In this document: positions 18,539 to 21,713 of the stretch, piece after piece
Position numbering within the stretch: position 1 is the stretch's first letter
Layout: every line of letters starts with the position of its first letter
Source: Holophagae bacterium
Lineage (GTDB): Bacteria > Acidobacteriota > Holophagae > Acanthopleuribacterales > Acanthopleuribacteraceae
DNA: 64,000 bases
Reading direction: 5' to 3'
Assembly (NCBI GenBank): GCA_030429565.1
Contig: JAUIFE010000004.1
Coordinates: forward strand, 158,848 to 222,847
The notes under the pieces: model-generated
The model's database searches: none
The model's input: the letters and a program-made list of their open reading frames with translations, nothing else
Told to the model about the DNA's origin: nothing
Position numbers and translations under genes: made by a program

Positions 18539-21172
18539 TTAGGGGTTGCCATTCTGTGAGGAAGGCGACGGTGTTTGGTTGCCGAGTAAACCCAAGCGCA
18601 CCAAGGTTTCGCATAGATCTTTTTGGGTCAGGGGTTTGGCGATGTAATCGTCCATCCCGGCATCCAAACAGCGCTCGCGGTCGCCGCGCATGGCATTGGC
18701 GGTAATGGCCACAATGGTTTGGTGACGTCCTTGATCTGTCTCCCACTCGCGAATGAGACGCGTGGCGCGGTATCCGTCCATCTTGGGCATGTGGCAATCC
18801 ATGAGCACCAAGTCAAAGGTTTCCTTCTTCATGCGTGCCAAGGCTTGTTCGCCGTCCTCGGCAAAGGTGACGTTGAAACCCAAGGCCTTGAGCAGGCCGG
18901 AGGTGACGATGGCGTTGGTTGCATTGTCTTCAACCAACAATATATCCGCTTTGTGGCCGGCTTCTGGGTGAAGTAGGTTCATCGCTTCGGCCGGAATTGG
19001 GTTGTTCGTCGGTTGATGCGGTGCCCCGATATGATCGGCCAACTTGCGCAATACCAAATTGGGATTGATCGGTTTGCGCATGTGCGTGCCGTGTCGGCGA
19101 GTGGCGTCGGTAATCGGTGACATACTGACGAAAACCAGGGCGGCGCGACAATCGCCGGCGTGCTGTTCCAACCAGCGTCCCAAAGCCGAAGCACTGATTT
19201 GGTCGACATCACACAACAGCATCGCTTTGTTCATTTGGCAAACTTGGTCCGGCGGCATGTCCGGCGAGCGAATATCGATGCACTCGACGTGGGCGCGCGT
19301 CAAGTGGGGCGCAATGCTTTCGTACAACAGGGGTTTTGAGGACCAGACAAAAACGGCGGTGCCTTCTGGGCCACCGTGGAAGGGTTCAAACATGCGGTCG
19401 GGGCCACGTTTCATGTCGATTTCAAACCAAAAGCGCGAGCCGACGCCGACCTTACTGGCCACGCGCAAGGTTCCACCCATGAGTTCGACCAGCCGCGCGC
19501 AAATCGCCAAACCCAAGCCGGTGCCACCGAAGCGACGTGTCGTCGAGGAATCAACCTGGCTGAACTTATCGAAAATGGAATCCAATTCTTCGGGTGGGAT
19601 GCCGCTGCCGGTGTCGGTCACTTCGTAGCGCAGTACCATGGTGTCACCGTTTTGGCTCATGCGTTTGGCTTCAATTAATATATGGCCGTGGGCGGTGAAC
19701 TTGGCGGCGTTGCCGGCCAGGTTCAGCATGACTTGACGCAACCGCCCTTCATCGCCGTGGACCAGGGCCGGTAAATCGGGATCGATGTTGATGGCGAGTT
19801 CAACCGGCTTTTGTTGTAACTTCACCGCAACCAATTCGCCCACCGACCACAGCGTTTCGTGCAGCGGAAAGGCGTTGCACTCCAACTCCAGTTTGCCCGC
19901 CTCAATTTTGGAAAGATCGAGAATGTCATTGAGGATGCCGAGCAGGTGGGTGGAGCTTTTGCGAATCAAGGCGACAATGTCGCGCTGATCTTGGTTTAGC
20001 TCCATTTGGTGTAACAATTCGGCGCCGCCGAGAATGCCGTTCATGGGCGTGCGAATTTCATGGCTCATGTTGGCAAGAAACTCACTTTTAGCGCGGTTGG
20101 CGGTTTCGGCGGCTTCTTTGGCATGGCGCAAGTCGCTTTCCATGCGTTTGCGTTCGGTGGTGTCGGCGGCCACGGCAACCACCATGCCGTCTTCTTTGAG
20201 CAAGGCCGCGTGCCAGGTGATCCAGCGCCAATTACCGTCGCGGTGGCGAATGCGGTTCTCGAAAAACGAGATGTCTTTACCTTTGAGCAAATCGCGCCAA
20301 GCGGCCCGCGTTTGCCGGCTGTCTTTTGGATGCACCGCCGCAAAAAAACGTTTGGGTGAAAACCAGTCGCGTGCGCGGCCCAAGGCCCGTTCCGCTGCTT
20401 GATTAACCTCGAGGAAATGGCCCTTGGTGTTCATAATAAACAGCATTTGCGGTGACTTTTGGAAGAATTTGCCACGCTCGCGTGATAGCTGGTTCATGCG
20501 TTCGGTGTTGCGGCGAAACACTTCGAGGGCGGCCAACATGTCACCAATTTCGTCGTGATAACGGGGTTTCGGCAAGGCCACATCGGTGGTACCGGTCGCC
20601 AGCAGGGTCATGCGTTCGGTCACCAACTGAACCGGCACCAACACGCGTCGGCGAATGGTTAACATAAAGCCGAGGGCTATTGCGCCCAGCACCAGGCAGG
20701 CAAACAGCACCAGCATTAACTGGCGATTGGCCGTGCGTGAGGTTTCGCTGAGGATGTGTTCCGTTGGCTGCGAGATTTGCGACTCAAAGTGGCCGATGCT
20801 CGTCAGCACGCGTTTGAGTTCATCGAGCCAATCGCCCGGCGCCAACTGGGAGGCGTCTTCCAAAAGGGCCGCCGCGTAAATTTTGCGGCGCATGGTGTCG
20901 AGTTTTTCGAACTGCGCGTTCATCTCCTCGAAAGCGGTGACCATTTGTTGGGCATTGTCGTTGTCGCGATTTTGTTCCACCAACTGCGCCAAAACGGTGC
21001 GATCACGGTCGGCCAACTCGCGAATTAGCGTCAAACGTTGCGTGAGTCGGTCCATGTTCTCTTTGCCAAAACCCTCGCCGCCGGCCATGACCCACATCAA
21101 CAGCGTGCCCTCGCGGACGGTGGTTTCGTAAAGTTGGGCCGAGGCGGCGCGCGTAAGTAAGGTTTGGCGCAA
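18539..21172 (-). CDS. hybrid sensor histidine kinase/response regulator (TM2-HAMP-PAS-HisKA-HATPase-REC), main reading frame
   Basis: H-box [15 protein letters not shown] boxes, C-terminal receiver ([23 protein letters not shown]); the listed start is only the first TTG in an open frame that stays open upstream and overlaps the next ORF. Confidence 0.8.
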
Positions 21173-21713
21173 CAGGTGTTGCCCTGGCGTTTGTGCCTGG
21201 GGTGATGTTGCTGCGCAACAAGCGGAAAAGGTGAAATAACGACGAGAAACTCTCGACCCAGGTATCCTGATGCAGGCCGCGCTGGGAAACCAAAGCCGAA
21301 CGCAGTGTTTGCAACTCCAAGTATTGATTGCGGCAGCGTTCCGTCAGGGTCACCGCTACTTGGTTGTCGTTGGCCAAGGCGTGAACGGCGATTTGGTCTA
21401 GGGTGGCGTTGACCAGTTGGTCGTTGCGGCTTTGTAACTCTTTGAGGGTTGGCAGAATAGCGGCCCGCGTTTCGCGATTAGAAACCATGAGCAGCATGCC
21501 GTGTGCGACCTCGCCGCCCAAGGCGCGGTCCATTTCGTGAATGCCGTTGACCATGTGGTTCGCTTCGAGAAAGTAACGGGCTTGGTTGCGCGAATCAATC
21601 GCGTCACGGGCTAAAAAAATGGCGAGAAAAAGAACCAATCCCGTCAGCGTGGTGGTGACCAGCACCAGTAACAGGCGCACATTGATGCGGATTTTTCTCG
21701 ATGATACGGCCAT
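21003..21713 (-). CDS. N-terminal TM1 plus periplasmic sensor segment, probably the 5' part of the same sensor kinase in another frame (frameshift or sequencing error near 21170-21250)
   Basis: starts 11 nt after the upstream receptor stop; TM helix LLLVLVTTTLTGLVLFLAIFL then a protein-like periplasmic domain; the last 80 codons are Pro/Arg-rich frame garbage overlapping the HK frame. Confidence 0.5.
   Translation of the reverse strand: MAVSSRKIRINVRLLLVLVTTTLTGLVLFLAIFLARDAIDSRNQARYFLEANHMVNGIHEMDRALGGEVAHGMLLMVSNRETRAAILPTLKELQSRNDQLVNATLDQIAVHALANDNQVAVTLTERCRNQYLELQTLRSALVSQRGLHQDTWVESFSSLFHLFRLLRSNITPGTNARATPVAPNLTYARRLGPTLRNHRPRGHAVDVGHGRRRGFWQREHGPTHATFDANSRVGRP

Follow-up and report, generated by a model that had tools for sequence, protein, structure and literature searches.

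On the minus strand of the window (the whole stretch of 64,000 nucleotides analyzed here), a 236-aa ORF (ORF A) and the kinase frame that overlaps it are supported by sequence comparison as two parts of one gene, a hybrid sensor histidine kinase whose reading frame is broken by a surplus C in a four-base run. The extra base is somewhat more likely to be a genuine mutation than an error. The parts of the locus are as follows, in window coordinates:

21713..18539, minus strand: hybrid sensor histidine kinase gene, as repaired by orthologue comparison.
21713..21003, minus strand: ORF A, 236 aa with an ATG start, carrying TM1 and an all-helical extracytoplasmic segment.
21201..21713, minus strand: 5′ part of the kinase, comprising codons 1 to 171 in the true frame (tblastn, coding score, hydropathy, structure model).
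21199..21202, minus strand: frameshift site, a C4 run on the coding strand (GGGG on the plus strand; DNA alignment, tblastn).
21003..21198, minus strand: out-of-frame tail of ORF A, with its stop at 21005..21003 (composition shift, negative coding score).
18539..21199, minus strand: 3′ part of the kinase, equivalent to orthologue residues 172 to 1057 (tblastn, Pfam, database entry P0003).

The two frames overlap by about 195 to 340 nt, depending on where the second is taken to begin. The listed start of the kinase frame is a TTG at 21172. The initial annotation had remarked on this codon and on the open extension upstream of it; both are present, and the extension, put there at no fewer than 29 codons, is actually 57 codons long and reaches 21343. 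Because 21713 − 21172 = 541 = 3 × 180 + 1, the kinase frame is +1 relative to ORF A, so that a single ORF would require one nucleotide fewer or two more. The databases hold the two pieces as separate entries, both derived from the NCBI record: P0001 for ORF A (236 aa) and P0003 for the 3′ part (838 aa, called from an ATG at 21055 and beginning MDRLTQ). As the initial annotation had pointed out, the kinase frame alone places about 150 residues ahead of a single TM helix and lacks TM1, and ORF A encodes TM1 and a periplasmic-looking domain; hydropathy puts TM1 at about aa 12 to 36.

The composition of ORF A changes along its length. From the first 168 residues to the tail, Arg rises from 9.5% to 17.6%, Pro from 0.6% to 10.3%, and Gly from 3.6% to 11.8%, while Leu falls from 17.3% to 4.4%. 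A Pro/Arg-rich, out-of-frame tail had been described previously with a length of 80 codons; its character is borne out, and its length is revised to about 65 to 68 codons. Read in the +1 frame, the same DNA (21003..21198) is genuine kinase sequence. Codon usage in 15 long ORFs of the window was used to train a log-odds model, and a coding scan with it scored the frame of ORF A as coding from about 21692 to 21201 and the kinase frame as coding from 21181 on, with negative values for the tail of ORF A. The switch between frames was thus placed at 21201/21181, within the interval of about 21170 to 21250 proposed earlier for a shift inside a single sensor gene, and homology narrows it to 21199 to 21202.

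One close relative, Acanthopleuribacter pedis KCTC 12899, came out of a scan of species-representative genomes. Its orthologue, WP_207860799.1 (named hybrid sensor histidine kinase/response regulator by NCBI), is a 1057-aa protein encoded by one uninterrupted ORF (L008 8001..11174) and is present on two A. pedis contigs. The intact protein was compared with the raw window by tblastn, which needs no repair assumption. Residues 1 to 171 matched 21713..21201 in frame −3 (76% identity) and residues 172 to 1054 matched 21199..18566 in frame −1 (74% identity). The two segments are colinear and nonoverlapping, and they abut at 21200 with zero residues lost and one nucleotide left over. This is the alignment to an intact orthologue that had been put forward as a check on the single-gene proposal, and it bears the proposal out.

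At the DNA level, the window and A. pedis align with a single 1-nt gap in this region, where the window reads ATCACCCCAGGC and A. pedis reads ATTA-CCCAACC. The immediate context is ACCCCAG in the window and ACCCAA in A. pedis, so that the lengths differ by other than a multiple of three just where one frame gives way to the other; the C4 run of the window sits in ATCACCCCAGGC and the C3 run of the intact orthologue in ATTACCCAACC. Deleting one C from the run at 21199-21202 gives a 1057-codon ORF, the length of the orthologue, which is about 75% identical to it from end to end. The frame is likewise restored if a G is removed from the neighboring GG (giving ITPAQT rather than ITQAQT), with a slightly poorer fit to the homologues.

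More distant homologues are also continuous across the junction. In an exhaustive phmmer search of 1.84 billion representative proteins with residues 1 to 357 of the provisional fusion as the query, P0004 (1056 aa, 43% identical) matched query residues 2 to 357 in one stretch, and about 30 other kinases with 20 to 31% identity also spanned the junction. A multiple alignment of P0004 and 12 further homologues has zero gaps across it. When the fused sensor region was used in a word-indexed protein search, the 236-aa ORF was the sole hit. Orthologues in the form of two separate genes had been named in advance as the finding that would speak against a single gene, and none was found; the homologues are single proteins.

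The surrounding gene order is conserved in A. pedis for 17 kb or more and, upstream of the kinase, at the P0004 locus (on OZ219275.1 of GCA_965112975.1, a sequence of 11.8 Mb). The kinases are therefore regarded as orthologues, and the split as the derived state. The A. pedis locus shares with the window the upstream genes for PCMT, Spo0M, Vut_1, a YfiR-like protein, and a TonB-dependent receptor, as well as the downstream genes for a methyladenine glycosylase, a PALP enzyme, DUF3050, and a Ser/Thr kinase-TPR protein; its kinase differs from that of the window in being intact, with CCC in place of CCCC. The P0004 locus shares PCMT, Spo0M, Vut_1, and a 200-aa YfiR-like protein upstream, and its kinase has the same domain order. 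It differs from the window in that the kinase is intact, no TonB-dependent receptor gene lies between the YfiR-like gene and the kinase, and the downstream genes are different.

The repaired protein has only two hydrophobic segments, at residues of about 12 to 36 and 330 to 355 by hydropathy. In the window as written, TM1 and TM2 lie in different frames, and the two-TM layout holds for the repaired protein only. The 5′ part encodes TM1 and helices 1 to 4 of an all-alpha periplasmic sensor domain, and the 3′ part encodes the second half of that domain, TM2, HAMP, PAS, HisKA, HATPase_c, a linker, and the receiver. Pfam matches in the kinase are HisKA (9e-21), HATPase_c (1e-29), Response_reg (4e-27), and PAS, with HAMP below threshold. 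HisKA, HATPase_c, and a C-terminal receiver thus occur in one polypeptide, as in a hybrid sensor histidine kinase. The predicted order would be TM1, a periplasmic double helical-bundle sensor, TM2, HAMP, PAS, HisKA, HATPase_c, and receiver. The segment of about 150 to 200 residues between HATPase_c and the receiver (18900 to 19500, minus strand, residues of about 690 to 925) has no Pfam match and is also present in P0004, P0006, and P0008; it may be a degenerate receiver or a linker domain.

The approximately 300 residues between the membrane helices likewise match no Pfam family. An AlphaFold2 model built from a 13-sequence alignment is all-helical, with eight helices (pLDDT 86.7, pTM 0.79), including long helices at residues 12 to 77 and 292 to 358. 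In this model, the junction maps to a loop of lower confidence that links helix 4 (149 to 170) and helix 5 (176 to 211), midway through the sensor domain. The top PDB match of the sensor model was the NIT (nitrate/nitrite-sensing) domain of NasR (4akk), a weak match (Foldseek E value of 0.035, TM score of 0.47 to 0.49). Both are all-alpha with two helical bundles, aligned over about 340 columns, but they share only 13 to 14% identity. The Pfam NIT model (PF08376) found no match in the sensor domain even at an E value of ≤10, and a profile of the sensor family run against PDB sequences did not retrieve NasR. Because the fold match is weak and sequence profiles do not link the sensor to NasR, we call the sensor NIT-like in shape only. 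The sensor domain (20650 to 21640, minus strand, residues of about 37 to 330) belongs to a small family that has no Pfam model, with 32 representatives at an E value of ≤0.001 among 1.84 billion proteins; its invariant residues include E201, R231, R275, Y279, W295, E310, and P316. Residues 249 to 400 also weakly match (24.7 bits) the sensor/HAMP region of the phosphatase SiaA in NCBIfam.

Two genes lie immediately upstream of the kinase on the same strand:

21725..23776, minus strand: TonB-dependent receptor gene (Pfam Plug and TonB_dep_Rec_b-barrel; same position in A. pedis).
23779..24417, minus strand: gene for a YfiR/HmsC-like (DUF4154) periplasmic protein (Pfam PF13689, 24.2 bits, just below the 24.9 cut-off).

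The receptor gene ends 11 nt before the kinase ATG, and the YfiR/HmsC-like gene, whose position is kept in both A. pedis and the P0004 locus, lies 2 nt upstream of the receptor gene. The three genes probably form one operon of this Acanthopleuribacter-like acidobacterium, with the YfiR-like gene first and the kinase last. The order YfiR-like protein, TonB-dependent receptor, and kinase is common to the window (21725 to 24417) and A. pedis (L008 5329 to 7988), whereas in the P0004 locus (L002 9155 to 10001) the kinase comes next after the YfiR-like gene, at a distance of 244 nt. The receptor gene, being absent from this syntenic locus, is therefore a variable member of the probable operon. A Ser/Thr protein kinase of 821 aa with TPR repeats is encoded at 13176 to 15641 (plus strand), several genes beyond the histidine kinase on its downstream side, and homologous kinase-TPR genes are found near the orthologous histidine kinases in A. 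pedis (L008 14282 to 16753) and the P0004 locus (L002 16805 to 19333). A search of the window with Rfam gave no match.

The change from C3 to C4 at 21199-21202 would shift the frame after codon 169 to 171 or thereabouts. Translation from the true ATG would then yield 236 aa, made up of TM1, one half of the sensor domain, and a nonsense stretch of about 65 residues, and the remaining 886 codons would have lost the native start codon and TM1. Judged from this topology, the gene as written should make no functional kinase, because an internally restarted product would lack the anchor that places the sensor half outside the cell. The dN/dS ratio against A. pedis (Nei-Gojobori) is 0.12 for the whole repaired gene, although dS is saturated (1.3 to 4) and the values are rough; under the same caveat, the ratio is 0.07 for codons 1 to 168, 0.08 for codons 169 to 357, and 0.14 for the rest, and eight neighboring genes range from 0.06 to 0.15. 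Neither a second defect nor relaxed constraint was seen in the kinase gene by dN/dS or by alignment to A. pedis. Since both halves look as though they are under purifying selection and carry no second defect, the lesion is young compared with the divergence from A. pedis, and the shift is either very recent or not real.

We consider a real mutation, i.e., a recently formed pseudogene or an allele that has lost function in this strain or population, the best reading of the site, with a rough probability of 0.75. The main competing account, to which we give a clearly smaller though still appreciable chance, is that the gene is an intact C3 gene and that the fourth C entered the consensus through a base-calling or polishing error at the homopolymer. 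A one-base length change in a homopolymer is the classic form of such errors, this is the sole defect in an otherwise well-conserved gene (by the rough dN/dS value given above), and no comparison allele, intact or broken, was found from another sample of the same species. A four-base run is short for a systematic homopolymer error, however, and a 64.6-kb contig in the Logan assembly of run ERR3428548 matches the window with 100% identity across 13,737 bases, among them the C run, which it passes unbroken; this contig was reported from 2 samples. An unbroken contig assembled from k-mers would imply accurate reads, which makes a consistent error in a four-base run unlikely. ERR3428548 may be the data behind the deposited assembly, in which case the two assemblies are not independent evidence on the template. 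In addition, both strands of the 64 kb were scanned for the signature of a frame switch, in which the coding signal is lost well before the stop of one frame and picked up in another. Only this site was detected, so indels are not widespread in the assembly. A single frameshift among about 55 genes is compatible both with an ordinary load of pseudogenes and with a small remaining rate of indel errors. It is the identity of the Logan contig, together with the lack of any other frame switch, that makes us lean toward a real mutation. Scans of JGI metagenome contigs, both by exact pattern for the C3 and C4 versions of the junction and by protein, gave nothing, as did contig look-ups with P0001, P0003, and the Vut_1 protein and a literature search for ERR3428548. 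An exact look-up among 15 billion proteins found neither repaired version (ITQAQT or ITPAQT), so the species has no intact allele on record. The end of the Logan contig, at window position 20040, lies within the region encoding the kinase H-box. There, a 49-nt stretch (20033 to 20081) is 94% identical to large Vibrio replicons of about 1.85 Mb in a plasmid collection, the only match in a plasmid megablast; it is probably a conserved motif repeated among paralogous kinases, of the kind that breaks k-mer assemblies.

The remaining accounts are all much less probable than an error. That the locus holds two genes, namely a real small membrane protein of 236 aa and a separate kinase of 838 to 877 aa, is suggested by the separate database entries, but no homologue has such an arrangement, all of them being single proteins across the junction. 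The last ~65 residues of ORF A carry no coding signal and have an out-of-frame composition, the 838-aa call starts in the middle of a conserved sensor-domain helix and lacks TM1, and the extent of the frame overlap also speaks against separate genes. We rejected the two-gene arrangement on the orthologue comparison and the noncoding tail of ORF A, and regard it as highly improbable. We attach similarly little weight to a real but tolerated C4 allele, which would act as a split sensor (the 236-aa fragment plus an internally initiated kinase) or through a low, regulated level of +1 read-through. Slighter still is the chance that full-length kinase is obtained from this sequence through a decoded shift, whether by programmed +1 ribosomal frameshifting, by transcriptional slippage, or by phase variation of the C run. 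In its favor, the site is rich in C (ACC CCA) and shifts can occur readily at proline codons, but the shift is unconserved, with A. pedis, P0004, and 12 other aligned homologues all in frame. A +1 shift is needed, yet the only slip that allows re-pairing, of tRNA-Pro from CCA to CCC, is −1 and enters the third frame, where a stop soon follows. By inspection of ATC ACC CCA GGC, the site has neither a stop nor an obviously rare codon after it and no Shine-Dalgarno-like stimulator ahead of it. Known loci subject to slippage or contingency variation have tracts of about 7 to 8 nt or more, far longer than the 4 nt found here. Programmed frameshifting, transcriptional slippage, and phase variation were rejected on the in-frame orthologues, the lack of +1 re-pairing, and the tract length.

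The main value of the finding is for annotation, and nothing about it is unexpected in kind. The 236-aa and 838-aa entries should be merged into one 1057-aa hybrid sensor kinase flagged as frameshifted, as a 236-aa "protein" with about 65 nonsense C-terminal residues is a potential contaminant of protein databases. Should the mutation be real, this strain no longer has the kinase of an operon that is kept intact in A. pedis, and the locus would be a small natural knockout that could help to assign a function to an uncharacterized conserved operon.

Among known systems, the locus may be compared with prfB, the gene for RF2, in which two overlapping frames also serve one protein and the second is likewise +1 to the first. 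The prfB shift is conserved across species and is marked by a slippery codon, an in-frame stop, and an upstream Shine-Dalgarno-like stimulator. None of these features is present here, and the orthologues of the kinase are in frame; in these respects it differs from prfB and is an ordinary frameshifted gene rather than a new kind of feature.
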